NCBI GenBank assembly: GCA_002269645.1
Contig: NIVC01000870.1
Span: 62,001 to 126,000, forward strand
Source: Macrostomum lignano
Taxonomy: Eukaryota
DNA: 64,000 nt
Direction of reading: 5' to 3'
This document shows, one piece after another, positions 8,138-34,987 of this stretch (the stretch's first letter is position 1; every line of letters starts with the position of its first letter). Position numbers and translations under genes: made by a program. A model generated the notes under the pieces. The model was not told the DNA's origin, did not search any database, and was given only the letters and a program-made list of their open reading frames with translations.

Positions 8138-8900
8138 AGATTGCTAATCCCAACATGGGATATTATCAGATTGCTAATCCCAACATGGCGATATTATCAG
8201 ATTGCTAATCCCAACATGGGGTATTATCAGATTGCTAATCCCAACATGGGGATATTATCAGATTGCTAATCCCAACATGGGGTATTATTAGATTGCTAAT
8301 CCCAACATGGGGATATTATCAGATTGCTAATCCCAACATGGGGTATTATCAGATTGCTAATCCCAACATAGGATATTATCAGATTGCTAATCCCAACATA
8401 GGATATTATCAGATTGCTAATCCCAACATGGGATATTATCAGATTGCTAATCCCAACATGGGGTATTATCAGATTGCTAATCCCAACATGGGGATATTAT
8501 CAGATTGCTAATCCCAACATGGGGATATATTATCAGATTGCTAATCCCAACATAGGATATTATCAGATTGCTAATCCCAACATGGGATATTATCAGATTG
8601 CTAATCCCAACATGGGGTATTATCAGATTGCTAATCCCAACATGGGGATATTATCAGATTGATAATCCCAACATGGGGATATTATCAGATTGCTAATCCC
8701 AACATGGGATATTATCAGATTGCTAATCCCAACATGGGGTATTATCAGATTGCTAATCCCAACATGGGGATATTATCAGATTGCTAATCCCAACATGGGG
8801 ATATTATCAGATTGCTAATCCCATCATGGGGATATTATCAGATTGCTAATCCCATCATGGGGATATTATCAGATTGCTAATCCCATCATGGGGATATTTT
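8138..8900. repeat. 30/31-bp minisatellite upstream of the Nup35 acceptor
   Basis: Unit agattgctaatcccaacatgggatattatc. Confidence 0.95.
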
Positions 8901-8926
8901 CAAACAAGCTCCTCATCTCCCCGCAG

Positions 8927-17197: not shown

Positions 17198-17404
17198 ATG
17201 TCTTTCGATGCCAAACTACTGGTTGAGAAGTTGGATAGTTTCAACTACACTGTCTGGAAGTTCAAGATGAAGAACGTCCTGATGGAGCGAGAACTTTGGG
17301 AAGTTGTTGATGGTACAGAGACACTTGCTGAGGACGCGACCAACGAGGTCAAAGTTCAGTTCAAGCGGCGTGCGAACAAAGCCCTAGCGACTATCGTATT
17401 GGCT
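17198..17404 (+). CDS. gag: Copia gag N-terminus (69 codons), truncated by Polinton insertion
   Basis: MSFDAKLLVEKLDSFNYTVWKFKMKNVLMERELW...KALATIVLA continues in frame into VADSQIHLIEDAETPKEAW at 34988 once the insert and one TSD are removed. Confidence 0.92.
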
Positions 17405-17785
17405 AGTAGTAGGGAAAAAGACGCTTCTAGACCCAGAGCACTTTTTTAATAGCAGTTTTAAGGGTCTAGAGGGGGGACACGAGGGGGTAACTAAAAAACA
17501 CATCTAAACACCCTTAACACATCTAATCACCCTTAATCACCTACAACCCCCATAATCACCAAAAAAGCAATATAACCCTTTCTTATAACACCCCTCGTGT
17601 CCCCCCTCTGGAACCTTATAAACGGCCATTAAAAAAGGTCTGATCTAGAAGCGTCTTTTTCCCTACTACTACTCTACCCAACACATCCAACACTTCCAAC
17701 ACTTCTAACACTTACAATACTTCTAACACTTCAAATTCTCTATAACCCCTCGCACGCGCCGCAGGCGCGAAGGGTCTTTTTCTGT
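17405..17785 (+). repeat. Polinton left TIR (381 bp)
   Basis: Reverse complement of 34601-34981 with ~2 mismatches in the aacacttc repeats. Confidence 0.95.
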
Positions 17786-17793
17786 TATAAAAA

Positions 17794-18108
17794 ATGAACC
17801 GAGTTTACACCTTTTCTGTTAGTGATACTTTTGAGACTGTTGCTAAAAATGCAGAGATAATAAAACAACATATTTTGAATGGAATAATTGATGAAGTTTA
17901 TTTAAAGTATGATGATAAGCACGACCTAAAACTTTATCCATTAGAGTTGGATGGGATGTATGATTTAGAACAAGAGGGTGAGTTAATATTTCAACTTGGA
18001 GATTATTTAAATTCGGATGATTGGGAGGTTCGTTCAGTCGATTCCAACTCAACAAATAGCTCATATGAAACTAGTGATTCTGAGAATGAAATTGAAATTT
18101 TTATGTAA
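17794..18108 (+). CDS. Polinton hypothetical acidic protein (104 aa)
   Basis: ORF with TAAAAAATG start context immediately inside the TIR. Confidence 0.65.
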   Translation: MNRVYTFSVSDTFETVAKNAEIIKQHILNGIIDEVYLKYDDKHDLKLYPLELDGMYDLEQEGELIFQLGDYLNSDDWEVRSVDSNSTNSSYETSDSENEIEIFM

Positions 18109-18111
18109 AAA

Positions 18112-18336
18112 ATGAACTATTACTCTATAACAGAAACGACATTTATTGTGAAAAATATATATAAAAAAATGAAGGTAAATTATTCCTATATCGGAAATGT
18201 GCCGATTAATGAACTTAATGAAAATTTAAGTTTGATATCTGTTGAACAAATGTCAATAATAATATTAGTAACAATAATAGTAATAATATTGTTTTTGTTT
18301 GTTATAAAAAATTTACTACCCTGTTGCCTTAAGTAA
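18112..18336 (+). CDS. Polinton small membrane protein (74 aa, C-terminal TM helix + CC)
   Basis: IIILVTIIVIILFLFVI hydrophobic run; TAAAAAATG start. Confidence 0.6.
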   Translation: MNYYSITETTFIVKNIYKKMKVNYSYIGNVPINELNENLSLISVEQMSIIILVTIIVIILFLFVIKNLLPCCLK

Positions 18337-18346
18337 TTGTTCAAAC

Positions 18347-19925
18347 TTAGTTCGCAGACATTAGCTGGTTCTCATAAAAAGAACCTAATATTTCTTCACC
18401 ATCCTTATCAGCAATTATATAGGTTGTAGGATTGGTATTTAAAACTTTACTGATAGTGAATTTCTCACTTATTTTCCAATATCCTTTTCTTCCCTTTTCA
18501 AACTTATCTTTCCATTTATAGATATAAACAGAATCACCAACTTTAAAATCTTTAGTTTTCTTTTTTTCAAATTCTCCAAAAGTAACTTTAACGTTTTCAG
18601 GATTGTTATAAGCTTGTTGAGGAGTCATCTTTATTGCCGAATGATATGAATTGTTATAATCTTTCACGACGTCTGGTAATATTTTTACCCACTTTTGGTT
18701 TCCATTAAGACTAAACTGAAACCACAATTTCTTACCTAAAGTTCGATTAAATCTTTCAATTAATGCATTTTTGCTTTCTCCATAAATAGAATAAATTTTA
18801 TTAATATACTCCCCATTCGCGTCTTTTTTCCTTTCTTGTCCTTTTTCAAAATGATATAATTTATACATATGAGGATTGTAAAATTCTTTTCCCTCATCAA
18901 CACACAAGCGTTCGCTTTTTTCATCAAGACTTCTAAAAGCATTAGCAACATCCTCTCCCTTTTTGGATTTCAAAGGAACTGCCCACGCGTATCGAGTAAA
19001 ACCATCCAATATGGTTAAGATATATTTATATCCACTATCAATCGGCATCGACATTAAATCAGCATACCAAATTTCATTCTTTTTGAAGTTCATGATTTTT
19101 CTATAAAATTTAGGTTTTCGATATTCTTTATGAAGAATCTTTGCCTTATCAGAACTTAACCCACTGCCACCTAATAGTAAACACTCAACACAATTATTTC
19201 CATGTTGATTGTAATTAATTCCCAAACCAAATTTAACTTTAGATTGCAGAATCTTTTTAACCATCCACCTAGTTAATCTTTGGCCTACTGACAAGCCTTG
19301 CAAGTTATCTAATCCTTGAATCATTTTTTGATCGGCTTCATGTTTTAATCTTAATGCTTCCTCGGGTGAGTTCTTATCAGCATCTCTGTATGCTAAGTCA
19401 TGATAGTATGCTAACCAATCAATACCGTTAATGGGAATTGAATCAGGTTTTGGAGTGTCATCAGGATTTAATCTCAAATCTAGCCTAGTGCCGGGTAGTT
19501 TGCCCTCTATCTTTCGAAAGAGGCTGGAGCACACCTTAAGCGGTTAAATTACCGCCCATCTCCGTCTGCTCTCTGAACCTTCTCCTTATATTTAAATACT
19601 TAGGAGCTTGGCTGCGCATTGCCACCGTGTCTTCAAGCTTGTTACCGTTGGGAAGAGGAGTTACCTCTGTTCCTTCAAAAGATTTCTCAATTGAAGTGGT
19701 ACTTGAAGCTGTATGACGGGTTTCACGCAATTTGAAGATGTCGCCACAAATAGTGACTAGCAAGGACATTGCCTTCCTCACTCAGGCCACGGACTAACCT
19801 GTGAAGTTCATTGATGGAAGGTGCAGTTCCCCAGTATACCTTCCAGTAGTAAAAACGCTTGGTAAGCTTGTTAATCCTTTTTGAACATCTAACAATCCGC
19901 CTTCAAACACTAATTGGTCGTTCAT
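18347..19925 (-). CDS. PLA2 (parvoviral VP1u/PLA2X-like)-retroviral-type integrase fusion; exon 1 19925-19797 (43 aa), exon 2 19495-18347 (382 aa); 425 aa after removal of the group I intron
   Basis: Splicing restores ELHLPSMNFTG-PGTRL...PINGIDWLAYYHDLAY (PLA2 Ca loop and HD dyad). Integrase DDE: IWYADL, LCVDEGKEF, LIERFNRTL. Exon 1 ATG has the element's TAAAAATG context. Confidence 0.88.
19496..19796 (-). ncRNA. Group I self-splicing intron, IC1-like, 301 nt
   Basis: P1 CAGGU/GCCUG with U.G at the 5' splice site; P2.1; P3 CAUCUUC/GGAGAUG; J3/4 AAA; P4 UGCGUG/UGCGCA; P5abc with GAAA tetraloop; P6 GCC/GGU; P6a CUCCU/AGGAG; J6/7 UCA; P7 GAGAGCA/UGCUCC; P8 GGCGGU/ACCGCU; J8/7 UAAGGUG; P9 with GAAA loop; P9.0 AG/CU. 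Confidence 0.9.
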
Positions 19926-20475
19926 TTTTAATAGCCTCAAAAATACATGATAGCACCAATTGTTTTGCAAATTCTTCGATGGTTGGTTGTTTAACTTTTT
20001 TATAGCGATTATCTTCACTAGTTAAGTATCTTTTATTTGTCCAATGTTCCGACTTTATCCTTTGATCTTCATCTTTATAACTAAACGAAGAAGCAGGGAT
20101 GAAATGATCAATATCTATCGATCCAGTATAATCTTTTGAAACATAATATTTTCTTGTGAAATTTAACCAATCAAAAAAGAATTCTTTTGTGCAACCAAGA
20201 TATGAGATATAGTCCTTATCATTAAAATTTTTCAACGCCCAATTTATTCTATTTCTAATTAAAACAATATGTTTGTAATTTTCATCAGTGTGATACTTAT
20301 TTTTTCTATATTCATTCCATTTATCTTTATTCTTTTTTATCCACATAATAGATGAAGTATTATGACAAGATCGACAATCATTTCTAAATTTTTTTGAATC
20401 ATTTCTCCAACAAAAAAATTCTTTAGTCATAGGCTTTTCATCTTTACACTTATTACAAATCTTTGTTTCATCCAT
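19903..20475 (-). CDS. Free-standing HNH endonuclease with N-terminal zinc finger (190 aa)
   Basis: CNKC...CRSC, then LGCTKEFFFDWL and IDIDHFIPASSF...HWTNKRYLTSEDNRYK (D-H..N..N), resembling giant-virus/phage HNH families. Confidence 0.8.
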   Translation of the reverse strand: MDETKICNKCKDEKPMTKEFFCWRNDSKKFRNDCRSCHNTSSIMWIKKNKDKWNEYRKNKYHTDENYKHIVLIRNRINWALKNFNDKDYISYLGCTKEFFFDWLNFTRKYYVSKDYTGSIDIDHFIPASSFSYKDEDQRIKSEHWTNKRYLTSEDNRYKKVKQPTIEEFAKQLVLSCIFEAIKNERPISV

Positions 20476-20502
20476 TTTATAAAAAACAAATTTAATAATT
20501 AA

Positions 20503-21171
20503 TTAAACTCCCGTATGTCCAGCAGCTTTCGCAGCAGCTAAAACAAGTTTTCGCGGAGTTTTAAATCCTTCTCCAACAGCCGGTTTGTTATTTATAGAAC
20601 CAACAATTCTTTTATACAACCCAGTATTTTTAACACCTCTTGTTCCTAACTCATCATAAAAAATTTTAGCACTTACTAATTCATCTCTAGTATATAATTC
20701 CGGGTCAAATTTTACATTCGGGTTCATAACAATATTAAATGCTCCACCCAATTCTCTATATAGATCATCCTGATTTTTATCAACTCCACCAATTCGATAA
20801 TTACCATTATCTAAATCTGTCACAGCAATACTAGGTGGTGTTCTCGGAAATTCAACAACTTCACCCCGTTCTGCATCCCTAATCTCATCAACTCTCCTTA
20901 CCGCTTGAGCAGCCTCATAAGTAGGCGGCTCATCTAAAATTTCATCCTCTTTTGGTTCGGTATTCTTAGCAATTTTTTCCAGAAGCTCTTTATCTGTTTT
21001 TTCTAGTTCACTAATTTTCCCCGTAATAGGATTAACAAAAGGAGCAGCAAATCTTTCACCCGCTAATTGTATTCCTAACTTTCTTTTTTGTAAATTTCTA
21101 ACAAAATCAGAATATCTTTGCTTCTCTTTATAAATCGCTAACTCTCCATCAACGTCCATAAATTGACTCAT
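20503..21171 (-). CDS. Polinton conserved-type hypothetical protein (222 aa)
   Basis: Intact ORF with TAAAAAATG start; N-terminal coiled coil; family not assignable by eye. Confidence 0.7.
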   Translation of the reverse strand: MSQFMDVDGELAIYKEKQRYSDFVRNLQKRKLGIQLAGERFAAPFVNPITGKISELEKTDKELLEKIAKNTEPKEDEILDEPPTYEAAQAVRRVDEIRDAERGEVVEFPRTPPSIAVTDLDNGNYRIGGVDKNQDDLYRELGGAFNIVMNPNVKFDPELYTRDELVSAKIFYDELGTRGVKNTGLYKRIVGSINNKPAVGEGFKTPRKLVLAAAKAAGHTGV

Positions 21172-21205
21172 TTTTTAACATAAAAAACTTTTTTAACTTA
21201 AAAAA

Positions 21206-22681
21206 ATGGCTGAAACAAAAACTATATGGAGTGATAAATTTCATTTCAAAAAGCACCGCCAGTATATTAATGAGGTTAGGGCAAGAGATTTGAATTATAC
21301 CCTACCAACAAGTGATAATTCAAATAACTTTACTACCGGAACGGTAACTTTTGACATCGGCGCAACCAACACTATATTGGATATGAAAAATGCGTTTTTC
21401 CGTGTTAGATGGTTGTATACCAAAAATGATGGAACTGCTCTTGCTGCTGGTGATATCGCAGATCGTTCTGGAATAATAATAGAAAATGATTGGTTTTATA
21501 AATGTTTTTCCCAAGCACAACTATCAGTTAATGGAGCCGAGGTTGAGACATCATCAAACCCCGCAGAGATTAATGGAGTTTTGAAACATTTAAATTATAC
21601 TTATTTATCAAAACAAGTTGGTGATAATGTTGGGTGGATGCCTGATAAGGGTAATGGACAAGCAGTAGTTTTCCCTAATGTACAAAACGTAGCAGGTGGC
21701 GCAGATGCTGCAGCTCTTGTTGCTTTTCTTAATACCACTATAGTTCCAGTTGTAACCACCATGACTAATACAAAAGATATTAATACTGGTTTTATTGATC
21801 GTCAGAATAAATTCCCAGTCGCGGTTTTAACCGCTGCAACCGCATATGAGCAGGACTTCTCAATCTTTCCGCTATTTGGGTTCTTCTCACCAAATCGGGT
21901 ATGGAAAGGATTAAAATTTGGGATACAGTTGCAAATATCTGGTGGATATCAGCCTAGGATACTTTATGGAACATCGGTTTCAACCGATATAGCAGTTCGT
22001 ATAGATTCAATTCAATTAGTTGTACCAACTATTGAGGTAACAGCCCAACTTTTAAAACACATCGATAATCAGTTAACCCATGATCAGGAAATATTTTATT
22101 TGAATCGTCGACATTTTATGCGAACCATTAATAATAACCAGGATTCATTCCAGTGGCAGATAATTACATCAAAACGTCGGGTGAGATATATTTTTGTTTG
22201 GTTTAAAATAACAAACAGAAGGAGTAAAAGAGCAAATGGGGATTTATATTGGATTCAATCAGGCACCATAGCAGAACAAGCAGCCACCGCAACAGACAAT
22301 GCGGCTTCAGCTATTAACGAGTTTAATGTTCAGAATATCCGCCTGCAGGTTGATGATCAATATTATCCGGTTAAAGACCCTCTTAATCTAAACATAGCAA
22401 ATAATAATGTTAATGATTTTATAAAATATTATCAAGATTATGTCAAAAATGAAGCGTATGCCGTCCCTCAGTACACACCCACAGAGTTTCTAAACATTCA
22501 TCCAGTGGTTGTTTATGATCTAACGGCACAGAAAGAAAACGTAGCCAATGTTGGACTTAATTACATGTTAGAGATTAATAAAACCGGCAATCAGGCAATC
22601 GACGCCCACGTATTGTTTCTAGAGGAATATATGTCAATTGCTAAAGCTGATGGCACGATTGTTCGTGACGCGCCAATTTAG
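21206..22681 (+). CDS. Major capsid protein (double jelly-roll, Polinton PY/hexon-like), 491 aa
   Basis: Size, beta-rich pattern (FSQAQLSVNGAEVE, RVRYIFVWF, NIRLQVDDQYYP, PVVVYDLT) and position before ATPase and penton. Confidence 0.85.
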   Translation: MAETKTIWSDKFHFKKHRQYINEVRARDLNYTLPTSDNSNNFTTGTVTFDIGATNTILDMKNAFFRVRWLYTKNDGTALAAGDIADRSGIIIENDWFYKCFSQAQLSVNGAEVETSSNPAEINGVLKHLNYTYLSKQVGDNVGWMPDKGNGQAVVFPNVQNVAGGADAAALVAFLNTTIVPVVTTMTNTKDINTGFIDRQNKFPVAVLTAATAYEQDFSIFPLFGFFSPNRVWKGLKFGIQLQISGGYQPRILYGTSVSTDIAVRIDSIQLVVPTIEVTAQLLKHIDNQLTHDQEIFYLNRRHFMRTINNNQDSFQWQIITSKRRVRYIFVWFKITNRRSKRANGDLYWIQSGTIAEQAATATDNAASAINEFNVQNIRLQVDDQYYPVKDPLNLNIANNNVNDFIKYYQDYVKNEAYAVPQYTPTEFLNIHPVVVYDLTAQKENVANVGLNYMLEINKTGNQAIDAHVLFLEEYMSIAKADGTIVRDAPI

Positions 22682-22700
22682 TTAAATTATTTCTTTAAAA

Positions 22701-23459
22701 ATGGTAAAGGCAAAACACGATAGAATATTTCCAAATGATCCTTTTCTTTGTTTAGTAATCGGAGGATCAGGTAAAGGAAAAACACACTTTGTTTACGATT
22801 TATTAACAACAGATGGAATGCTAGACTATAATAATTTAATAATTTATACTAACAAACCTAAAATAAAATATTATGAATTTCTTAAACATGGATTAAAAAA
22901 CAAATTAAAAAAAGATATTATGTTTAGAATGTTAAGAGCATATGAGCAATATGAGGACGATGATGAACCAAGATTTACACTTGATGACATTGAGGATTTA
23001 TGTAAAACAACTGCAAAAGAACCGGAAAACATTAACAACCGAGCCCCAACTGTTAAAGTAGCAACCCAATTATCCTATGATCGAATTCCACAACATGATA
23101 AAACACTAATTATTTTTGATGATTGTATTAATGATAGTGATCAAGAATTACAAAAGGAAATTTTTGTTAGTGGTAGAGGAGATGGAATTGGAGCTTTTTA
23201 TCTTACTCAATCCTTTAGAGATTTAGAATCGATTATAAAAAAGAATGCTAGCTGTTGTGTAATGTTTGATTTAGATAGCTATGATTTACAAAATATACAC
23301 GCTAGATTTAATCCGGGGTTGGATATAAAACCATTTAAAAGTATGTGTAAAAAAATTTGGGATGATAGCCAATACAAACATATTTATATCAATCCGAGGT
23401 TAGAAAGGAAACATAGAATTTTAAAAGATCTTATAAAAGAGGATAACGAGGAGGAATAA
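22701..23459 (+). CDS. A32/FtsK-like genome packaging ATPase
   Basis: Walker A GGSGKGKT, Walker B LIIFDD, GRGDGIGAFYLTQS. Confidence 0.93.
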   Translation: MVKAKHDRIFPNDPFLCLVIGGSGKGKTHFVYDLLTTDGMLDYNNLIIYTNKPKIKYYEFLKHGLKNKLKKDIMFRMLRAYEQYEDDDEPRFTLDDIEDLCKTTAKEPENINNRAPTVKVATQLSYDRIPQHDKTLIIFDDCINDSDQELQKEIFVSGRGDGIGAFYLTQSFRDLESIIKKNASCCVMFDLDSYDLQNIHARFNPGLDIKPFKSMCKKIWDDSQYKHIYINPRLERKHRILKDLIKEDNEEE

Positions 23460-23475
23460 AATTCCCACTATAAAA

Positions 23476-24261
23476 ATGGCTACAAATTTAGACACTATAA
23501 AACAATTGGTAGATCGAACTAATTCAAAATATAGTACAACCTTACAGTTTATAATGACAACCAGTGAACAACGTATTCAATTGCGCAACCCGTTACAACT
23601 CGATCAAAGCCTAAGTTATCAAATAGGTTTGATATTATTTTCAGTTTTTAACATGCCTCAATTAATTAATGCAACAAATAATCAATTTAGATATTCTAAA
23701 GATTCCGGAGCCAATTGGACAACATTTAGCGTTAACCCAGGAGCATATTCTTATACCGATTTGAATGCTTATATAGAAGGAGAATTAACAGCTAATGGAG
23801 ATTGGGTAGCAGGCGCGATTGTTATAGGAGTTGATTTACCATCTGGCAGATTCACACTATCACTAGGATCCGGATATCAGGTTGATTTCACAATTGCAAA
23901 TTCACTCAGAACCATACTCGGATTTAATTCCCGAATCGTTACCACATCAAGCACCGGCGACACAGTGGGAAATATTGAGGGTGGAGTTAATACAATTAAT
24001 ATAACAACCGACATTTCAAACGGTGGTTATATAACAGACGATAATGGGGTTTTGGTTCAACGTGGAATTATTTATTCAATCCCATTTCTTGCTGTTCCAA
24101 TTGGAGAAAAAATGATTGTTTCACCCCAAACCCCCATATATTATCCTTTAAATCAATATAGTGTTCAATCAATTTATATTAGGATTGTAGATGAAAGCGA
24201 TAGATTAATAAGTTTTGGCGGACAGTCAATAACGGTAATTTTACGTATAAAACAGGTTTAA
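23476..24261 (+). CDS. Minor capsid protein (penton, single jelly-roll), 261 aa
   Basis: PGAYSYTDLN, LRTILGF, INITTDI, YYPL..SIYIRIVDESDRLISFGG..VILRIK, typical of Polinton pentons. Confidence 0.85.
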   Translation: MATNLDTIKQLVDRTNSKYSTTLQFIMTTSEQRIQLRNPLQLDQSLSYQIGLILFSVFNMPQLINATNNQFRYSKDSGANWTTFSVNPGAYSYTDLNAYIEGELTANGDWVAGAIVIGVDLPSGRFTLSLGSGYQVDFTIANSLRTILGFNSRIVTTSSTGDTVGNIEGGVNTINITTDISNGGYITDDNGVLVQRGIIYSIPFLAVPIGEKMIVSPQTPIYYPLNQYSVQSIYIRIVDESDRLISFGGQSITVILRIKQV

Positions 24262-24307
24262 AACCGCCCCATAGGGGCGAGGACATCGTCCGTTTCCCAT
24301 AGTAAAA

Positions 24308-24484
24308 ATGGGTAACCATTCTGGAGCGTTAAAAAAACAATCAGATAAAGTTCAAAATGCAAAGGATAACTATGAAATCGAACTAACAAAATTGAAACAA
24401 CTTCAAGCAGAAAAAATTCGAAAGGAACTGTTAAAATCCAAACCTACGAAACTAACCAAAACCAAGAGTTTTTCAGGAACATAA
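24308..24484 (+). CDS. Small basic coiled-coil ORF (58 aa, MGNHSG...), absent from the ORF track
   Basis: TAAAAATG start; fills the gap between penton and protease; stop abuts the next start. Confidence 0.6.
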   Translation: MGNHSGALKKQSDKVQNAKDNYEIELTKLKQLQAEKIRKELLKSKPTKLTKTKSFSGT

Positions 24485-24485
24485 A

Positions 24486-24923
24486 ATGACTTTGAATTGG
24501 CAGTTATTCAAACAAAGATATGGAACAGACACAACAAGCAATATTGAATTAACAAATTGGGCGCGGCAGTTAAAAATAAAACCATTCAGATGTGTTATGC
24601 GAGATGAGATCAAAGACTTACCACAATATGGATCATACATTGTCAATATAGAAACAACAAAAGAAAATGGTGTTCATTGGTCAGCTCTTTATTCCAAACC
24701 CAAACTTGTTTATTTTTTTGATTCATACGCGCTTCCTCCGTTACAGGAAATAAAAGACAAATTTAATCATACTAAAAATCGTTTATGTGGAGATCATCAC
24801 GAACAATTTCAAACATTTGATAAAAGTTATTGCGGGCAAGCGGCGTTGTATTTTTTATATAAAATTAATAATTCTAAGGAAAGACCCGAAGACTTTAAGA
24901 ATATTTTAGACTCTATAAAATAG
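24486..24923 (+). CDS. Adenain-like cysteine maturation protease
   Basis: GVHWSALY, YFFDSYA, QFQTFDKSYCGQAALYFL (His/Asp/Gln/Cys). Confidence 0.93.
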   Translation: MTLNWQLFKQRYGTDTTSNIELTNWARQLKIKPFRCVMRDEIKDLPQYGSYIVNIETTKENGVHWSALYSKPKLVYFFDSYALPPLQEIKDKFNHTKNRLCGDHHEQFQTFDKSYCGQAALYFLYKINNSKERPEDFKNILDSIK

Positions 24924-24933
24924 ACAGTAAAAA

Positions 24934-26805
24934 ATGATATTTTCTGGAACACCCTCATGGAACGGAACAACAAGTACTGGTGGTGGTACATCTGGTGGAA
25001 TAAGTGTTACATTCGGGGATAACCGATATATTAATGAAGATGAAGGTTATAAAAAAACTGAAATTGATAATAAACTAAATTTAAAAAGAAATGTTGCAGA
25101 TTCCTATACCAAAACTGAAATCGATACTTCATTAAATTTGAAAAGAGATATTAGTGATTCATATACAAAAACAGAGGTTGACACCGGGTTAAATTTAAAA
25201 AGAGATATAACCGATTCTTATTCTCGAACTGATTCTGATTCGCGTTATGTTCAAACCACCGCAACCGGAACCTTAGATATGGACAACAATCGAATTATAA
25301 ATGTTGCAATTACAACGAATAACTCGGTAGTTGATAAGAACTATGTCGATAATCAGGTGGGTAGTCGTAACGGCAATATCAATATGAATAATTTTAAATT
25401 AACAAATTTATTATTTGGAACAGAGGCCACAGACTCGGTCAATTTAGGACAAGTCAACGCTCGAGCTAATGTAACCGACGCCGATATTTTTTCCACGCCG
25501 CTTACATCAAATACTTCAAATCCAGATGTTGTTCTTACAGCATCCGAAAATACCAACGATGCTTTTCGAGTTGGAGATGGAAGCCTTGCGACACAATGGT
25601 CACCAAATACCGGAACCACAACCAATATGGAAATTCAATTTGAATTTTTAGGTTATAATCGAAGAATAAATGAATTAAGAATTACAGGCAGCGCAACAAT
25701 TGATATTCCATCGGGATGGTCGGTTCGTGCAAAAAATGTTGCTACCGATGCATGGACGGTATTACGAACGTCGGGATCCCCAATTCAAGCAACTTCATTA
25801 GCATTAACTAATTTAACGGTTAATTTTTGGAAATATTATAGCGTTTTATTCCCAACTGGTGGTACCGCTACACAGCCTATCGAGGTTCGTCTAATACAAT
25901 TATTTGAACACCGAGTTGAAATTCAAGATCTTAATTGGCCGAATCAAATACTTTCTGCAACCCCGCGAGCGTACGTAGATCAGGTAGCAACCCCAACATC
26001 AAATGGGAGAATGTCTGCTGGTGATAAAAATAAATTGGATAACATTCCCGCGATTGATGCTGCATTATTCGAGACAGTAATTTGCAATTGGACTGGATAT
26101 CAAAATCCAACAACCGCCGGAGATATATATCCAGTTGGTTCTTTAATTGGCGACGCTTCTTATATCGATTATCAAAATGGTGCTAGAATTACTCGTGAAA
26201 CTGGTGGAGTAAGTGGTGCATTACAATTTAATTTCACACATTTTCAAAATATATCTGCGTCTTTCTTTTTCAGAGTTGCTAATGCTACAGGAGGTGGTGC
26301 AGATGCGGTTTGGTTTTATGCATATTGTCACGAACGACCAACAAGCGAAGGCGGGACGGGTTTAGCAACAGACGCTGGATTGATAGTTTTTGCAAGTGAG
26401 TGGCATGATAAATTTGGCATAGTTTGGAGCTCTAAAAAATCAGACGGATCAACCCGCGCGGATGTTAATACTGACGCGGATCAAACTGTAGACTATACAA
26501 ATATTGATAATGGTGATTGGCATCTGTTTGAAATAAATATTCTTAATCAAAGGGTTTGGTATCGATTACAATCATACAATGTCTCAGCCGATTCTTATAC
26601 CCTCATTGGGCAGAACGTTTTCACATATGATAGTGGAACTTGGGGAACTTTGGATAAAACGGGAACTCTTATGGGTTTTGGTGCTCGAACTGGAGGAGCA
26701 GATGCTGCACATTTTATTCGTGGCGCTGCCGTTTGTGGTAGCACATCATTTGGTTATATTTTTCCATCTACCGCATATTTGGAAAAACCGCCTGTAGCAA
26801 TATAG
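24934..26805 (+). CDS. Fibre/receptor-binding-like protein (623 aa)
   Basis: YTKTEID..LNLKRD..DS repeats x4, KNYVD motifs, discoidin-like middle (DG...TQWS) and lectin-like C-terminus (FFFRV...GGADAVWFY). Confidence 0.6.
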   Translation: MIFSGTPSWNGTTSTGGGTSGGISVTFGDNRYINEDEGYKKTEIDNKLNLKRNVADSYTKTEIDTSLNLKRDISDSYTKTEVDTGLNLKRDITDSYSRTDSDSRYVQTTATGTLDMDNNRIINVAITTNNSVVDKNYVDNQVGSRNGNINMNNFKLTNLLFGTEATDSVNLGQVNARANVTDADIFSTPLTSNTSNPDVVLTASENTNDAFRVGDGSLATQWSPNTGTTTNMEIQFEFLGYNRRINELRITGSATIDIPSGWSVRAKNVATDAWTVLRTSGSPIQATSLALTNLTVNFWKYYSVLFPTGGTATQPIEVRLIQLFEHRVEIQDLNWPNQILSATPRAYVDQVATPTSNGRMSAGDKNKLDNIPAIDAALFETVICNWTGYQNPTTAGDIYPVGSLIGDASYIDYQNGARITRETGGVSGALQFNFTHFQNISASFFFRVANATGGGADAVWFYAYCHERPTSEGGTGLATDAGLIVFASEWHDKFGIVWSSKKSDGSTRADVNTDADQTVDYTNIDNGDWHLFEINILNQRVWYRLQSYNVSADSYTLIGQNVFTYDSGTWGTLDKTGTLMGFGARTGGADAAHFIRGAAVCGSTSFGYIFPSTAYLEKPPVAI

Positions 26806-26822
26806 AAATATTTCTATATAAA

Positions 26823-27149
26823 ATGGCTTTTAGTAGAACCCCATCGATGCGGCAAAATAATGTTATCATTCCAATTTCTAAACAAGAATCAAATATAAAA
26901 ACTTTTAAATCTCATACGCGAATTTTATTTAGTGGAGTGAATGTTCAGGATAACAAGAAACTTCAAGAATTAATTAAATTATTAAAAAATCATATTATAC
27001 TTCAAGAGTTTTGGAAAATTGGATTTAAATGGGAGAAAAAAGAAAGAATAACTCCAATACAATACCTATTAAGCTCGGGACAAATCCCCAAAGAGCGCGG
27101 GGAATTCATTTTGGTGCTATTAAAAATAGACGAGAATGTCGGTGTCTGA
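26823..27149 (+). CDS. Polinton hypothetical protein (108 aa)
   Basis: TATAAAATG start, intact ORF. Confidence 0.65.
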   Translation: MAFSRTPSMRQNNVIIPISKQESNIKTFKSHTRILFSGVNVQDNKKLQELIKLLKNHIILQEFWKIGFKWEKKERITPIQYLLSSGQIPKERGEFILVLLKIDENVGV

Positions 27150-27663
27150 AGCAGATAAAAGGGAACGTGACCATTTTAACCAACGTAAAGGTCACATGTT
27201 AAGTAATGTTGATCGTATTAACTATGATTATGATTTATATGCTAAAAAAGTAAGAAGAGTTTCAAATCATATCAGAAATATGGATTTCTTCAATATTGGA
27301 TTTGGAAGCTTATCAATGTTATGTGTAATCGTTTTAGGTGTTTTACAATCTATTCCAACTCTTAATTTATCTCAATTATTTTTAGGTATTTCAATTGGCT
27401 CAATATCAGGTTTTGAATTAATTAGAAATTTATCAATACTTTTAGCAATTAAATTATATCTTAAAAAAAGAAAGGAAAAATATAAATCGTTAAGAGATGT
27501 TGCCAAACAATATAAAAATCAGTTATATTTATATGTGCAAAAAATATTGGATGACGGAGAGATAACAATTCACGAGTTATCAACCGCGGTTGAATTATAT
27601 GAAAAATATTTAAAAGATCGAAATAGAATTTTAGATGTTGAAACTTTTACCGATATAGAATAA
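27136..27663 (+). CDS. Polinton membrane-associated helical protein (175 aa, two hydrophobic segments)
   Basis: Hydrophobic hairpin followed by ILDDGEITIHEL...YEKY. Confidence 0.7.
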   Translation: MSVSEADKRERDHFNQRKGHMLSNVDRINYDYDLYAKKVRRVSNHIRNMDFFNIGFGSLSMLCVIVLGVLQSIPTLNLSQLFLGISIGSISGFELIRNLSILLAIKLYLKKRKEKYKSLRDVAKQYKNQLYLYVQKILDDGEITIHELSTAVELYEKYLKDRNRILDVETFTDIE

Positions 27664-27788
27664 AAAGAATTACGTTTGGACAAACCCAAAGCTCCACCTA
27701 TAGATACATTAGGTATTTACGAACCTGAAAGTATTGGTACTGGGGTACAAAGCCCGCGAACCGGTAGTGTGGTAGAACTTAATGTTGT

Positions 27789-28301
27789 TTAATCATGAAT
27801 TGTCATGTGTACAAAGTACAATTTATTTAATGCATACGTTATATATTCTTCCCAAAGTGGTAACTCTCTTGTGATCCTAGGTTTAAATTTTTTATCAATA
27901 CATAAAAATTCCAATGACTTTTTCAGTAACATTTCGTTAGGTATGTTACCTATCCTTATAAACTTTGTATTCTCTCGCATAAGAAAATTAAAATAATATC
28001 CAACTAAAATTAAAATCCTTTTGGAGTCTTTCGAACTTAATCCCTTTCCTTCATTTAAATGGAAAAAGTTGTTATATAAATAAACATTATTTCCGGGTAT
28101 TAAAATTGGATCAGATATGTCTCTTGTAAGATTTCTTAAAATTGTGTTTTTAAAATAGTAATATGAGTTTTCAATCTTTTTTGTTTTTTCAAATTGATAT
28201 ATTTTAGAGCATGAATAACACATATGATATATATCTCCGTTTGCTGTTTGAGCTCTATGCATAGTCACATTACATTTTTTACATACATAAATGTCTTTCA
28301 T
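27789..28301 (-). CDS. Polinton hypothetical protein with N-terminal CxxC...CxxC (170 aa)
   Basis: CKKC...CYSC, intact ORF. Confidence 0.6.
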   Translation of the reverse strand: MKDIYVCKKCNVTMHRAQTANGDIYHMCYSCSKIYQFEKTKKIENSYYYFKNTILRNLTRDISDPILIPGNNVYLYNNFFHLNEGKGLSSKDSKRILILVGYYFNFLMRENTKFIRIGNIPNEMLLKKSLEFLCIDKKFKPRITRELPLWEEYITYALNKLYFVHMTIHD

Positions 28302-28327
28302 TTTTTTGTTATTTTTTTGATTAAAAA

Positions 28328-28672
28328 ATGGAGAGCTGGTTCAAAACCGATTCTAATGTGATTAATTATCTCACACCCAATATGTTGGAGAATAAAGAAT
28401 ATAATATTATATGTTTGAGACAGGTTAAATTTATTGGACTTCAATCGATATTTTTACAATTAGATGGTCAAACAATACTATGTTTAAGTGGGAATGATGT
28501 TAAAAATTTTCCAGTTTTAGTTATTAATAAACCTAAAGCATTCATTATAAAATACAGTCTGGAGGGTGGGTTGCAATTTAAACTAAAACAAACAAATAAT
28601 AAAAAGAGTGACAGGACTGTAAAATTGGCTTCCGTTTGGGAGGCTGATGAAAATGACTACATTTTTTTATAA
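28328..28672 (+). CDS. Polinton hypothetical protein (114 aa)
   Basis: TTAAAAAATG start, intact ORF. Confidence 0.55.
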   Translation: MESWFKTDSNVINYLTPNMLENKEYNIICLRQVKFIGLQSIFLQLDGQTILCLSGNDVKNFPVLVINKPKAFIIKYSLEGGLQFKLKQTNNKKSDRTVKLASVWEADENDYIFL

Positions 28673-29027
28673 GAAAATGGAGACAATAAAAATCCTTATC
28701 ACTAAAGAGCGTGAACATAAAGATATTAATAAAAAAATAAATATAATTTTATCTCAGAAATATAGTGATTATGGTGATGAAATGTTTCCCATCCGATATG
28801 AGTTGGATAAAAAAATGCGTTTTATAAAAGCTGCTATTGCTTATGCTGAAACAGTAATTGAAAACGAAATAGATAGATTGGTTAGAAGAATAAAAGTACT
28901 TAGGAAAAAAATAAAAGAATGTTTAAGTTACCCTGCCGACTGTGAGGACAATTGGTGCTCAATAAAATATGAAATCGAAATGGATATTATGCTTAAACAA
29001 TTACATGCTTTGGTTTTTTTCAAGTAA
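28647..29027 (+). CDS. Polinton hypothetical protein (up to 126 aa)
   Basis: Intact ORF; start may be the internal ATG near 28677. Confidence 0.5.
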   Translation: MKMTTFFYKKMETIKILITKEREHKDINKKINIILSQKYSDYGDEMFPIRYELDKKMRFIKAAIAYAETVIENEIDRLVRRIKVLRKKIKECLSYPADCEDNWCSIKYEIEMDIMLKQLHALVFFK

Positions 29028-29180
29028 TTTTTCTGTTAATCTCATCCAGTTATTCAAGACTTTTTCCTTGTTTAATTTTTTAAGTTCTTTTGGAAATGTT
29101 GCGGTATAATTATCTATATCTTTTTCATATTCTAGAAATGTATTATATTCACATTCACATTCGGATTCACAATCACAATC

Positions 29181-32100
29181 CTAATAATAATTATTTATTG
29201 CCTCTTTGTATTCATTATATTTGCTTATTATATCTTCTTTTTGTTTTTTATCTTTTATCATATTTTTTATCTCTTCTTTTAAACCATATGGATATGTTTT
29301 AATTTTATCATCTAAATATCTTTTATCATCAAATGGACTTAATGTTTTTTTATCTGTCTCGATGACAAACATCTGATGCTTATCTGAATTTAATCGATAT
29401 TGTGGAGCATGATAATTTTCAATTGTATTAAGGTAATCTAAAAGTACGTTTTTATAATCATCAAATGTTATCTTTTTAACTGCTGCCCTTGATACCCCTT
29501 TTATTTTTTTTACCTCTCCCTCCTGTCCTAAAACTTTAAATGCATAGCATTTTGATCTTATTGCTATAAACTCAGTTATGATTTTGCTATTTAATTCATC
29601 TTTCATTTTAAGTACAACTTTCTTATTTTGATTCGATTTTAAGGGATGGTTATCCGGATAGTCTGATGTGTCCAATGTATCCTTAATTTTTTCCATATCT
29701 TTATAGACATCTAGTGTTTCAACCTTAAATACCAAACTGTCGGTGTCCGCATATATTGGATAGTTATCTGGCCATGTTTTATTTATAACATCATAATAGT
29801 ATTCATACATTACTAGCTTTGCATAATCTAAAACAACCATTCCAATAAATATTGGTTTAAGAAATTTTGTTGTTTTATTTCTCATATGTATTCCCATAAA
29901 GTTATCATTAAATTTTATAAAATATTTAAAGTTAGGTTTTGAGAAATATTTCTTTGCTTTATCAATATCCTTTTCTAAATGGAATTGGGTTCTATCTCTA
30001 ATATTTTCAACCGTTTTTCCATAAAAAGCATTATTCATTAATTTCCAATAATCTTTCTCAAAATTTGTTTTTGACATCTGTCTCTGATTTGAATTAAAGT
30101 CAATATATTTAGCTAACCAATCTTCCTCAATAAACGATATTGTTCGATGTACTTTAGACACTTTTAATCCCTGCTTTTCATAAAATTGTAGAAGCTTATA
30201 ATGCACTACATAGTTTTTCTTATCATGTAAATTTAATATTAATTTTTTTGTTGCTAGGTGTTTTGCATTATCTACTTTAAGATAATCTTTTTGTGTTTGT
30301 GATAAATCATCTTCATTAACTGAACAATGCTCTGGAGCTAAAGGATATTTATATGTTTTTGCTTTTGCTTCCCGAGTATATTGCAAATCCACTTCTACGA
30401 TACAGCCCCTTCCTTCGGGAATATTTTTGTAATAATCGGGGTCGTCTTCCCATTGGAAATCAGCTATTGGTAATTTTTGTTTCATACAACCACCGTATAA
30501 ATTGTTTGCATCTAGATATAATACATATGATGATTTTTCTTTTTTATTATAATTTGGTAGATATTTATTATTTACTTTAGTATATCTATCTCCTAGTACC
30601 CCCGAGAATCCACCACGAATTCCTCTCTCAATCATTAACAACATATCATGATCAGTTAGTAAATCAATCTCAACATCTGTGTATTTCAAACCGCAAGCCC
30701 ATGTTAATCCGGGTGCACTGAAACAATAAGCTGGATCAATTTTAAAATTCTCATAAGTATGATTCCTAAAGTTTTCAAATGCATCAGCTAATAGGAGAAC
30801 ATCTGCTTTAAGATATAGATTATGATAATCTTTAAATGTTTTACAATTAAAATATTTCCATACTTTTTGAGTGTGTTCATAATCCGATTCACTTATATTT
30901 GTTTGTGATAATGTTGAATAAAACTTTTCTATGGGTGGTAATTCGGTATGAAAAAATACGTCTTCAGATGTTACATATTCATATGGATAGATGCCCTTAC
31001 GAGTTAATAGCATTAGTTCTTCCTCGGATAGTTTTTCCTTTTTGAAACGATTCAATAGTATTGGAAAGTTTTTCTTTACTATTTCTAAATCCCACGGTTT
31101 TGGAACAAGTGATGAAACAACATTTGCTAAAGATGTTGATAAGAATCTCAAGGAATCTAGAAAAACTAGATGGGAGTATTTCTTACCATATGTTATTGAT
31201 ATGTAATTTTCTGATGTTTTAGGTAACATATTTATTTCATATTCATCCTTTCCTAAATGAAGCAATTCTCGAACTAGGAAATGAAAATCATATCCGGGAC
31301 CATTATGAAAAAATACTGGTATTTCCTTACATCCTTTTCCTTCTTTTGCGTTACATGATCTACATGCTGCCCCTCGATAAATTCCCGTTAGATGACAATG
31401 TTCTCGTATCTTATTTTTCTTACTTAAATATCTTTTGCACATATAACAATTTGTTGCATTTTTATAATTGTCTCTATCCTTATCTGTCATAATAATATTT
31501 TTTGATAATTTATCATATTGATTTTGAATATATTCAAATGCATTTACTAATGATTCTGCCATGTGCTTAGCTGCATCTTTACCGTGGTAAGTAATCATCC
31601 TTGATTTAAATATATGATCGGCTACGGAGTGTACATATATACAATAACTATTAGGAAACTGTTGCGCTAATTTTTTTGTGCATTCACCATCAGATACTGT
31701 CTGTGGTTCTTTTAAGGGAACATTTGTTGCTTCAAAATCAGCATATATTACTATTGGTTTTTTAATTGCCATATAATGTTGTTGGAACATTAGGGTTGCA
31801 TCTTCAGATGCTGGCATTACAGCATTAGTAAATTTGTGATCTAAACAAAATCGTTGATGATTTTTAAGAGCTGTTTCATCCTTTTTAAATGTGAAACAAT
31901 TTCTACATAGTGGATATCTATTTCTATTTTCTCTTAAAAAGGAACTAATGTCCTTTATGTATATATAATGTGTTTCATTTTCACGCTGCATGTACAAAAG
32001 GTCGATTTGATCTGGTGCTGTTATATCTGTTGCTGGCTTAACAAGATAACACCTTTTCTTATACCATTCTGGATCGGTTGAAATTTCTTCTAGATCTTTT

Positions 32101-32933
32101 GGTTCTTCAATTGTAAACACATTAATATTTAAACCATTCATTTTTTCAATCTTATATATATCATCTATTGCTACTGGGTATGATATGTTTTTCATTATTA
32201 TTTCATTCTCATATTGTTTATAATTATATATTTTATTAATGTGTGATTCTACTTGATTGTGATATTTATGAATTAATAAACACCATAATAAACATTTATT
32301 ATCTTTATTGTTTGGATTTATGATCATTGGTGATTTAAATTTGAGATTCATATGTGATCGTCCTTTAAGAATTTCAATAGGAACAATCTTTACTATTGCT
32401 GAATTACAGGATGCAAATATAAACCCGGATCCGTTTTCTGTCATCTTATCTATCCATTTATCAAACTCAGCTTCTATTTGATTAAATTGATTATTGTAAT
32501 TTCCCATTGATAGTAGTGTTTTATATGATTCTTGTGAAAAGTTATTTATTACTTCAATTTCTGAATTTGCATTAAGAATATTTGGTTTTTTAAATTCTGT
32601 TTCAACTTCTATTTTATACTTAATTGGCTGTCGTTTGTTATTTGGCCTTATAGTGTAATTGTTTAATATGATCTTTAATTTATCTTTCATTTGTTTAAAA
32701 TATTCTTTATAATTTGTATTTATATCTATATCTATATATATTACTTCAGCTCCATTTTGTACTTGTGGTTGGGGGTTATCAATATCATTTAATTGTCTTT
32801 CTAAACGTATCTCATTTTCTGCCCTAACTCTAGCTTCTATTTCAGCCCTATCGGCAATTCGTTGTGCTTCGATTTGAGCTATTAATTGTGCTCTAAGTTC
32901 AGGGTTGTCGATTTGAGCTAAAATTGCTTCCAT
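29181..32933 (-). CDS. pPolB: Protein-primed family B DNA polymerase (1250 aa) with inserted endonuclease VII-like Zn module
   Basis: Exo I YADFE, Exo II FHNGPGYDFH, Exo III YLKADV; pol A YLDANNLYG, pol B KLMNNAFYGK, pol C YADTDS; CYMC...EHCHLTG.YRGAAC.SCN. Confidence 0.97.
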   Translation of the reverse strand: MEAILAQIDNPELRAQLIAQIEAQRIADRAEIEARVRAENEIRLERQLNDIDNPQPQVQNGAEVIYIDIDINTNYKEYFKQMKDKLKIILNNYTIRPNNKRQPIKYKIEVETEFKKPNILNANSEIEVINNFSQESYKTLLSMGNYNNQFNQIEAEFDKWIDKMTENGSGFIFASCNSAIVKIVPIEILKGRSHMNLKFKSPMIINPNNKDNKCLLWCLLIHKYHNQVESHINKIYNYKQYENEIIMKNISYPVAIDDIYKIEKMNGLNINVFTIEEPKDLEEISTDPEWYKKRCYLVKPATDITAPDQIDLLYMQRENETHYIYIKDISSFLRENRNRYPLCRNCFTFKKDETALKNHQRFCLDHKFTNAVMPASEDATLMFQQHYMAIKKPIVIYADFEATNVPLKEPQTVSDGECTKKLAQQFPNSYCIYVHSVADHIFKSRMITYHGKDAAKHMAESLVNAFEYIQNQYDKLSKNIIMTDKDRDNYKNATNCYMCKRYLSKKNKIREHCHLTGIYRGAACRSCNAKEGKGCKEIPVFFHNGPGYDFHFLVRELLHLGKDEYEINMLPKTSENYISITYGKKYSHLVFLDSLRFLSTSLANVVSSLVPKPWDLEIVKKNFPILLNRFKKEKLSEEELMLLTRKGIYPYEYVTSEDVFFHTELPPIEKFYSTLSQTNISESDYEHTQKVWKYFNCKTFKDYHNLYLKADVLLLADAFENFRNHTYENFKIDPAYCFSAPGLTWACGLKYTDVEIDLLTDHDMLLMIERGIRGGFSGVLGDRYTKVNNKYLPNYNKKEKSSYVLYLDANNLYGGCMKQKLPIADFQWEDDPDYYKNIPEGRGCIVEVDLQYTREAKAKTYKYPLAPEHCSVNEDDLSQTQKDYLKVDNAKHLATKKLILNLHDKKNYVVHYKLLQFYEKQGLKVSKVHRTISFIEEDWLAKYIDFNSNQRQMSKTNFEKDYWKLMNNAFYGKTVENIRDRTQFHLEKDIDKAKKYFSKPNFKYFIKFNDNFMGIHMRNKTTKFLKPIFIGMVVLDYAKLVMYEYYYDVINKTWPDNYPIYADTDSLVFKVETLDVYKDMEKIKDTLDTSDYPDNHPLKSNQNKKVVLKMKDELNSKIITEFIAIRSKCYAFKVLGQEGEVKKIKGVSRAAVKKITFDDYKNVLLDYLNTIENYHAPQYRLNSDKHQMFVIETDKKTLSPFDDKRYLDDKIKTYPYGLKEEIKNMIKDKKQKEDIISKYNEYKEAINNYY

Positions 32934-33017
32934 TTTATAGAATAAAATTTATATAATGTTTGAATTATTGATTTTTTAATTTTGTGTTTTTGGTGTCCAG
33001 ACCCTCCCCCCAGGAGC

Positions 33018-34005
33018 CTATTCGAGATCTGCTTTTGGTAATAGCAATCCATTGCCCATAACGTTTGAATTTAAGAAAATTCCTGAACCTGCTTTTGGTC
33101 GCATTTCGAGATATAATCCGCTTCCGTCGTGTTTTTCAATGATATTAAAATCTTTTCCTAATTTATTAAAAATTTTCTGAACAGCTGGTCTAAAATTGGA
33201 TCCAATATTGTCAAAAAATCCTTTAGCTTTCTCACCCGTTTTTTCTAAAGTTTGGCCAAATTCATGTAGTTTATCTGCGACAACTCCACTTCCTTGGGTC
33301 GTTCCTTTTAGTACCAAACCGTTGCCATTTAACAGTAAACCATTCCCGCGATTTGTTCCTTGCAAGAGTAAACCTTTTCCGGCTGCTAACCTAGCTTCTG
33401 CATTTCTTTTTTGCTCTGCTGTTGCTGAGCTACTATTAATGGTATCAATAAGTTTCTGTTTGAATTGTGCATCCTGTGTTATTTGCTGTCTTTGAAATTC
33501 AGCATCTCGTTTAGCTTTTTCATCCGCAGCTTTTTTATCATTTACTGCTTTTGTGATTCCAGCTGCGCCCCCTGCTATTCCACCAGCTGCTCCTATTCCT
33601 GCAAAAATTATTGGCAATAAAGTTGCAAGTGGAAGTATGCCTCCTTGTTTTGCTTTTAATTCTGCTAACTGTTTTCGTTATCATGAATTCTTTTACCTGC
33701 TAAACCGGCTAGGCCTAAAAGAATTGGTAAAATAGGTAACAATCGTCTTTTTTAGTGTGAGTCTCCAATAAAAATTTTACATCGGAGTCTGTCAGCCTAT
33801 AATTTCTACCATGATTCTTAAAGGATATTGGCCTTCCTTCTTGTGCATATTTTGCAGCAAGTTTAAATGTATTGATATCGTAGTCAAGTTTTTTACCTAA
33901 ACGATCCAATCTTTTTAACATTGTGTGACTATGTTTATTATCGTCTAGATTTAAAGTATCTACAATTTCTCCTATAAAATATAAGCGGTCGTTATCTGTG
34001 TCCAT
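33018..34005 (-). CDS. Core/membrane-lytic precursor protein(s) with GG|L and GxG|L sites; appears to be one ~330-aa gene broken by two -1 discontinuities
   Basis: QGG|ILPLATLLPIIFAGIGAAGGIAGGAAGITKAVN; GKG|L, GNG|L, GSG|L repeats; no in-frame ATG for 33018-33617. Confidence 0.6.
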
Positions 34006-34015
34006 TTTTATATTG

Positions 34016-34414
34016 TTAAAATTTTTTTAATCCTTTTCCACCTTTTATAGTGGTTAACATTTTATTAAAATCCTGAATATCTTTATTACTTATTGGCGTG
34101 GTTTTCGTGGGGGTTTCTGTTGGTTGTGCGGCTTGTGCCAGCTTTAAATCTTTTATTGCATTTATTTGTGAGAGGGTGGCGTTAAAATCTCTCAATTTCT
34201 TTAGTTCTTCTGCCGCTCTAGCTGCTTCAATTCCTCCTTTTACAGCATTTGTTATAGAGCCTGCTGCGGAGCCTGCTTGCCCTATTAGACCCATATTGTC
34301 TTTAACAAAATTCGCTGCTGTTCCAACCACATCAAAAAGTCCCTCACCTCGGTATTCAATTGGGTCTCCTACCTGCAATTCGTTCAGATTTTGCATATGA
34401 GTAACGTGTGTCAT
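34016..34414 (-). CDS. Core protein precursor (132 aa from ATG 34414)
   Basis: RGEG|LFD and GGKG|L putative adenain sites; A-rich start context. Confidence 0.65.
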   Translation of the reverse strand: MTHVTHMQNLNELQVGDPIEYRGEGLFDVVGTAANFVKDNMGLIGQAGSAAGSITNAVKGGIEAARAAEELKKLRDFNATLSQINAIKDLKLAQAAQPTETPTKTTPISNKDIQDFNKMLTTIKGGKGLKKF

Positions 34415-34600
34415 TTTTTGTTCTATTTTTAGTAACAGAAAAAAGAGACGAAGTGGAAGCACAATAGGTTGGGGTAGAATAATAGAACAGTGGGTAGTAT
34501 AAGAAAAAGAGACGATTTATAACTTATGAATGAAACTCTCGCTACCATATATGGTATTATGCCTCCTCTTCATGAATGGGCTAGTATGAAGTTTCATACT

Positions 34601-34981
34601 ACAGAAAAAGACCCTTCGCGCCTGCGGCGCGTGCGAGGGGTTATAGAGAATTTGAAGTGTTAGAAGTATTGTAAGTGTTAGAAGTGTTGGAAGTGTTAGA
34701 AGTGTTGGGTAGAGTAGTAGTAGGGAAAAAGACGCTTCTAGATCAGACCTTTTTTAATGGCCGTTTATAAGGTTCCAGAGGGGGGACACGAGGGGTGTTA
34801 TAAGAAAGGGTTATATTGCTTTTTTGGTGATTATGGGGGTTGTAGGTGATTAAGGGTGATTAGATGTGTTAAGGGTGTTTAGATGTGTTTTTTAGTTACC
34901 CCCTCGTGTCCCCCCTCTAGACCCTTAAAACTGCTATTAAAAAAGTGCTCTGGGTCTAGAAGCGTCTTTTTCCCTACTACT
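34601..34981 (-). repeat. Polinton right TIR (381 bp)
   Basis: Reverse complement of the left TIR. Confidence 0.95.
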
Positions 34982-34987
34982 TTGGCT

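Follow-up and report, generated by a model that had tools for sequence, protein, structure and literature searches.

This study indicates that the group I intron in the PLA2-integrase gene of a Macrostomum lignano Polinton probably has a partner other than the HNH endonuclease gene adjoining it. On balance, sequence comparisons and structural models favour a reading in which the intron homes with, and immunises its carrier against, a methylase-free Eco47II-like enzyme predicted to cut GGNCC; the HNH endonuclease would be a competing occupant of the same slot. The first-pass annotation of this DNA had taken the HNH gene and the intron for a two-part selfish module that spreads by collaborative homing. 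A free-standing nuclease, an ORF-less intron protecting its own allele and spread among Polinton copies all fit the locus, but the wrong partner was named: the HNH gene of the window is present regardless of the intron, and the Eco47II-like gene is found inside the intron elsewhere.

The window, i.e. the whole 64,000-nt stretch analysed (contig NIVC01000870.1), contains a 17.6-kb element. Its relevant features are as follows, by position in the window.

17405..34981, no strand: Polinton/adintovirus-like element with 390-nt terminal inverted repeats and a 6-bp target-site duplication, TTGGCT (17399-17404 and 34982-34987)
18347..19495, minus strand: exon 2, the remaining PLA2 domain in in-frame fusion to the rve integrase (382 aa; from the ORF and Pfam)
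19496..19796, minus strand: group I intron type A, 301 nt, ORF-less, last base A and not G, splitting GGT|CC (Rfam RF00028)
19783..19801, minus strand: P1 helix, exon CAGGU with guide GCCUG and a U-G pair at the splice site; type B has the compensatory CGGGU/GCCCG
19797..19925, minus strand: exon 1 of the PLA2-integrase gene, 43 codons, the last being Gly GGT (from uninterrupted natural alleles)
19903..20475, minus strand: free-standing zinc-ribbon and HNH (H124/N147/N156) endonuclease, subtype H6, 190 aa, one of several interchangeable slot occupants
20503..21171, minus strand: conserved 222-aa gene, the upstream boundary of the nuclease slot

The element was assigned to the Polintons/adintoviruses on the basis of its terminal inverted repeats, 6-bp duplication, rve integrase, packaging ATPase, protease and PLA2-like gene; its polymerase and capsid genes are presumed from motifs and gene order. 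Animal-type host genes lie on both sides. The window genes at 8888-10150 and 13394-16305 are a presumed Nup35-like ORF and an alpha-amylase with animal enzymes as its best PDB matches. The DNA polymerase gene (29181-32933) carries an Endonuclease_7 (HNH-like) insert at residues 491-541 (Pfam E 1.9e-7), which resembles the pPolB2 class of nematode and oomycete Polintons as outlined in part of 10.1101/2023.08.22.554363.

With regard to the interrupted gene, exon 2 reads in frame into the rve integrase, so that splicing is required for the PLA2-integrase protein to be produced. The contigs of four sequencing runs, three of them presumed to be RNA, showed no joint between 19495 and 19797, which speaks neither for nor against splicing. 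The intron scores 56.6 bits against RF00028 (cut-off 50, E 2.9e-12), and its P7 is GAGCA/UGCUC. All five P1 pairs are present in 88 of the 89 type A copies and in 21 of the 22 type B copies, and the two types differ by a compensatory change. The intron had been described as devoid of an endonuclease ORF, which was borne out: the longest ATG frame on either strand is just 77 aa, and thus no nuclease is encoded. The 5' splice site lies at 19797|19796, and the junction, as set by the natural intron-less copies, is Gly|Pro, spelled GGT|CC or GGC|CC. The terminal omega-G is absent from the window intron, which ends in A. Among the 89 type A introns, 63 end in CTA and 24 in G, two ends not being called; the G-binding pair in P7 is unchanged in those ending in A, and the introns of a second Polinton family and of an unrelated metagenome contig (L301) end in G. 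An alternative in-frame 3' splice site, 9 nt upstream and ending in G, was rejected: it falls within the P9 stem, and the intron-less alleles read G-P-G. Insertions of ~6.7 kb, 0.8 kb and 3.2 kb within the intron or its ORF were observed at L113 (C986), L140 (C249) and L148 (C954).

The type B intron was found at L009, L061, L067 and in 19 more copies, mostly with a length of 326-328 nt and with the same 5' splice site as type A. P2/P2.1 and the P5 extension are common to both types, but type B has a different P3/P4/P7 core, which gives it a chimeric appearance. Its 3' end resembles that of the L301 intron, and it was not detected by Rfam. After type B, exon 2 seems to read A-G-L-T-R-L instead of P-G-T-R-L, the Gly-Pro being removed.

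The earlier description of the neighbouring ORF as an intact 190-aa zinc-finger and HNH protein proved accurate: the frame is open, two CxxC pairs and the H...N...N residues are present, and PHROG 1035 is matched. As the PLA2 start codon lies at 19925-19923, the ORF overlaps exon 1 by 23 nt, as had been stated, and it ends 106 nt from the intron site, close to the ~110 nt given before. Among 60 homologs, H124 and N147 are invariant and N156 is at least 90% conserved; the family comprises 3011 matches at E<=0.001. PHROG 1035 ('endonuclease VII') was matched at E 3e-7; Pfam gave no match (PF01844 was hit by one member of the 60-member alignment) and a profile search of PDB sequences returned nothing under E 0.07. 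A word-index search with the protein retrieved no homolog. The AlphaFold model (pLDDT 95.6) exhibits a zinc ribbon, a long helix and a strand-strand-helix core (strand 120-124, strand 148-152, helix 153-159). Its matches among solved structures are weak and mostly HNH nucleases, including the Hpy99I zinc ribbon (Z 5.5, the best value, over 42 residues), Cap5 (Z 5.1) and the IscB/Cas9 HNH domains (Z 3-4), with a best Foldseek E of 0.07.

Genome searches yielded 129 HNH matches and 108 scored integrase matches among 1868 candidates, a sample that is a lower bound and biased to close copies. From 124 distinct family-1 loci fetched, the 114 with the upstream gene and both exons were counted and 10 truncated ones were dropped. 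The slot held the HNH gene together with intron A (66 copies), intron B (16) or no intron (3), the Eco47II-like gene with intron A (22) or B (5), and an acidic ORF in 2 copies; collapsing near-duplicates left 86 copies and the pattern unchanged. The HNH gene adjoins 82 of 111 intron-bearing alleles and all three intron-less ones (Fisher p=0.57), and is therefore present regardless of the intron, an outcome that the first-pass annotation had itself named as a refutation. All 29 copies that lack a whole HNH gene keep the intron, and 27 of them have the Eco47II-like nuclease in the slot. When the whole genome was searched by pattern for family-1 junctions devoid of the intron, exactly these three copies were retrieved; they represent two independent insertions, two copies being one insertion seen twice. 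The catalytic H/N/N residues are kept in all three; two of the ORFs are whole and one is frameshifted near its start. Subtype H4 is represented among the intron-less copies. The acidic ORF (153-155 aa; L105 and L117, at 1472-1939 of the latter) has no Pfam match and is followed by an HNH 3' remnant.

We consider it unlikely that the HNH endonuclease itself, or more narrowly subtype H1 with intron B, cuts at the insertion site and moves with the intron. The conserved catalytic residues and a dN/dS of 0.48 across Polinton copies (57 whole ORFs; 0.36 in the nuclease half) argue for it, as does the fact that all 13 copies with H1 have intron B (10 of 10 once near-duplicates are collapsed, p=5e-9); the backbones of these copies vary as much as those of the family at large. 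To this pairing alone the module proposal may still apply, and not to the HNH gene of the window. Nevertheless, the link between H1 and B is only ~130 nt long, and their joint travel may reflect co-mobility or plain linkage and descent over that distance; in the other 9 of the 22 type B copies, the slot is occupied by H6, the Eco47II-like gene or the acidic ORF. The intron-less alleles with intact HNH residues and the persistence of the intron without a whole HNH gene count against the broader version, and no HNH gene was found inside this intron, in the family-2 loci searched or inside the homologous intron there.

Giant viruses provide further evidence for an intron-associated HNH. A search of viral contigs with an 18-nt intron-core motif gave at least 122 matching stretches, of which 80 were fetched with flanks. 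HNH-profile matches were present in 17 of these 80 loci, 15 of them strong, and an intron R element coincides with, or directly follows, the end of 15 of 16 HNH ORFs, which indicates that this HNH family serves group I introns with a related core in giant viruses. In 14 of the 16, a presumed capsid-gene exon follows (the label rests on motifs). These contigs (L179-L258) have several group I introns per presumed capsid gene; some encode the HNH family and others what we take, again from motifs, to be GIY-YIG- or LAGLIDADG-like ORFs. The Eco47II-like gene was found in none of the 80 loci.

The Eco47II-like protein is a predicted 167-aa PD-(D/E)XK nuclease, free-standing beside exon 1 in 27 of the 114 family-1 copies, and is unrelated to the HNH protein (hhalign probability 0.03%). 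Pfam RE_Eco47II (PF09553) matches 11 of 11 members (best E 4e-7), the family-1 protein scoring 20.6 bits, below the cut-off of 25.9. The residues E49, D65, E76 and K78 (E-D-ExK) are invariant. Its modelled structure most resembles that of EcoO109I (Z 9.8, rmsd 3.6, 166 of 167 residues aligned; next Z 6.4), and Foldseek likewise ranks EcoO109I (TM 0.62) first and AvaII next. The dN/dS of the gene is 0.23. A Pfam scan of the 16 ORFs of the element, several of which are without any annotation, found no methyltransferase. Methylase-free restriction enzymes are exemplified by PacI. Homologs of Eco47II are described as GGNCC cutters and EcoO109I as cutting RGGNCCY in parts of PMC10305163 and PMC3089450.

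The intron-borne form of this gene was recovered through the intron. An Rfam search of the genome gave 28 scored loci among 29,353 candidates, and all 15 of the 28 that were fetched belong to a second Polinton family, whose integrase is ~58% identical. In 15 of 15 loci of this first sample, the Eco47II-like gene lies within the homologous intron at the same codon; in a larger, overlapping sample picked by likeness to one locus, it was inside the intron at 28 of 28 two-exon loci. In L301, the gene is again inside an intron at the same GGT|CC site, and the tails of 6 of 9 public homologs of the protein read through a group I core. The free-standing forms make up one clade among intron-borne rows in a 24-row tree, which has a midpoint root only. 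The two intron-less family-2 copies are without the gene, and it is absent from all five intron-less copies fetched, a small number of low power; the family-1 share of this (none of three, p=1.0) is not significant. One intron-less PLA2-integrase locus of family-2 type, L335 (C3589), has another gene order and five GGNCC upstream of the gene, and is possibly a recombinant with a nuclease-free lineage. When viral contigs were searched directly with the HNH or Eco47II-like gene, no relatives turned up apart from two distant matches; the intron pattern was not found in metagenome contigs, and a search of a plasmid collection returned nothing.

The predicted target is almost missing from the element. 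GGNCC occurs once against 15.1 expected under an order-2 model, and its observed/expected ratio of 0.066 is the lowest of the 256 xxNxx words (next 0.47). The single occurrence also compares with 20.6 +/- 4.4 in dinucleotide shuffles and with 5.9 +/- 2.3 when the proteins are held fixed, and Gly-Pro itself is found once against 7.5 expected. The remaining site is the following.

31297..31301, no strand: sole GGNCC of the element, in Gly545-Pro546 of the polymerase, which is Gly-Ser in two other copies checked

All four GGNCC variants are depleted across the element. The host flanks have 56 sites (51.7 expected) and 49 sites (76.9 expected). Other family-1 stretches have 0 to 3 against 7.5 to 11.3 expected, and in 219 kb of family-1 loci there are three GGNCC in all, which are the three intron-less junctions. 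Family 2 has none against 8.1 and none against 4.6 expected. A third family (L159-L168), very abundant with at least 150 PLA2 matches, has PLA2 and integrase as separate divergent genes. With neither the intron nor the Eco47II-like nuclease, it keeps its PLA2 Gly-Pro uninterrupted and spelled GGNCC. It has 3-5 sites against 5-8 expected in 9 of the 10 loci with enough element sequence, and more where host DNA is included; it is slightly under expectation too (5 vs 7.8, p=0.21) and not clearly depleted, and the contrast is one of three families of a single genome whose copies are not independent. No second avoided word that would mark an HNH target was consistent across copies.

The intron falls in the middle of the GGNCC formed by the Gly-Pro codons of a conserved PLA2 loop. 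Given that Gly-Pro codons always spell GGNCC, only an intron or an amino-acid change can provide an escape at this position. Type A escapes by the intron, and type B seems to do so by the intron together with the amino-acid change.

The depletion bears on two further explanations. According to the first, the avoidance of GGNCC is a relic or was forced by an enzyme from elsewhere; the genes in the slot would be neutral cargo, and the intron would lie at a conserved codon pair by coincidence. The slot type is indeed weakly linked to flanking polymorphisms: in the sequence on either side, the similarity of same-slot pairs of family-1 copies exceeds that of different-slot pairs by only ~0.00-0.07, with the maximum next to the splice site, and no co-conversion tract stands out clearly around the slot. 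The unrelated acidic ORF in two copies points the same way. However, both nucleases are under purifying selection, and family 3 keeps GGNCC in the same genome, which makes this explanation very improbable. The second holds that the restriction-type enzyme serves chiefly as a weapon, turned on host chromatin or on competing viruses, the intron being retained for immunity alone and homing being a side effect. The purging of every GGNCC variant genome-wide points to a short site and not a long homing site; chlorovirus restriction enzymes are thought to degrade host DNA (part of PMC7019647), and intron nucleases can act in interference competition (parts of PMC5871332 and PMC11620839). Nevertheless, a gene inside the intron that splits its own predicted site is the classic homing arrangement, and the enzyme is not essential, because most family-1 copies have swapped it for the HNH gene. 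We regard the weapon explanation as having a small chance, slightly better than that of coincidence.

In the favoured reading, the Eco47II-like protein would be the intron's own nuclease, a predicted GGNCC cutter with no adjacent methylase. It would cut the GGNCC junction of intron-less rival genomes, and probably other GGNCC DNA too. A cut PLA2-integrase gene would be either lost or repaired from an intron-bearing copy, which would spread the intron, and intron and site purging together would confer immunity without methylation. The gene may have shifted between the intron and the adjoining slot, and once the intron was nearly fixed, the enzyme would no longer have been needed in cis. HNH homing endonucleases of giant-virus intron ancestry would then have taken the slot in ~3/4 of family-1 copies, which would stay immune as intron and purge persist. 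The HNH endonuclease of the window would be a lodger, most likely homing on a nearby target of its own. A counterpoint is that a 5-bp cutter is dangerous for host DNA, as the sites in both flanks illustrate; expression limited to a lytic phase is one guess as to how the host might be spared.

That group I introns come with nucleases is well documented for phages, organelles and giant viruses; among Polinton-like viruses, our literature search found group I introns in those of protists only, and none in elements of an animal nuclear genome. A close parallel is F-CphI with the psbA intron of cyanophage S-PM2, where, in parts of PMC6083498 and PMC11296320, a free-standing nuclease gene likewise adjoins an ORF-less intron in a conserved viral gene. 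In contrast, the Polinton slot is polymorphic for unrelated nucleases, the nuclease that fits best as a partner is of restriction type and has a predicted site of 5 bp, and the setting is an animal nuclear genome. Turnover at phage collaborative-homing loci, as described in part of PMC10448857, similarly involves loss of an internal nuclease and appearance of a free-standing one beside the intron, whereas in the Polintons the intron-borne and the free-standing form of one nuclease coexist within a single genome, which holds them in two element families. The nuclease-encoding introns of giant viruses, e.g. Bodo saltans virus (PMC5871332, in part), have a related core and the same HNH family inside, whereas the Polinton HNH lies outside the intron and the Eco47II-like gene is missing from the giant-virus loci. 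Protist Polinton-like viruses also have RF00028 introns of ~300-380 nt; in the relevant part of PMC12220804, these are reported only from elements of Rhodomonas, Paulinella and Desmodesmus, where they lie in a short gene that precedes the capsid gene and no nuclease is attributed to them. Eco47II, EcoO109I, AvaII and chlorovirus restriction-modification enzymes (parts of PMC10305163, PMC3089450 and PMC7019647) share the PD-(D/E)XK fold and the predicted GGNCC core; unlike type II restriction-modification, no companion methyltransferase was found in the Polinton, where protection is apparently provided by site purging and the intron. I-Ssp6803I is presented in part of PMC3424549 as an intron PD-(D/E)XK enzyme with a long site. 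PLA2X is described in the adintovirus paper PMC8502044, whose main text, searched by word, gave no intron in these elements. In the literature covered, which includes few subscription journals and no supplements, neither a group I intron nor an intron nuclease of restriction type was found reported for an animal Polinton.

A wider reading joins these elements, and we put it forward tentatively, at somewhat less than even chance for the whole: animal Polintons would use a restriction enzyme with a short GGNCC site and no methylase as the homing endonuclease of a group I intron, and purging plus a self-splicing intron, mostly an omega-A variant gating integrase expression, would hide the one site forced by the code. 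A single genome would hold the intron-encoded enzyme, the free-standing enzyme, its replacement by a rival HNH and a second, chimeric intron competing for the site. If true, this would amount to nuclease warfare between co-resident Polintons in an animal and to a new route to self-immunity, in which site purging and an intron replace methylation. The ribozyme would also have to function in animal cells for the integrase to be produced. The more than 140 copies would then constitute a natural series on intron nucleases moving in or out of introns.
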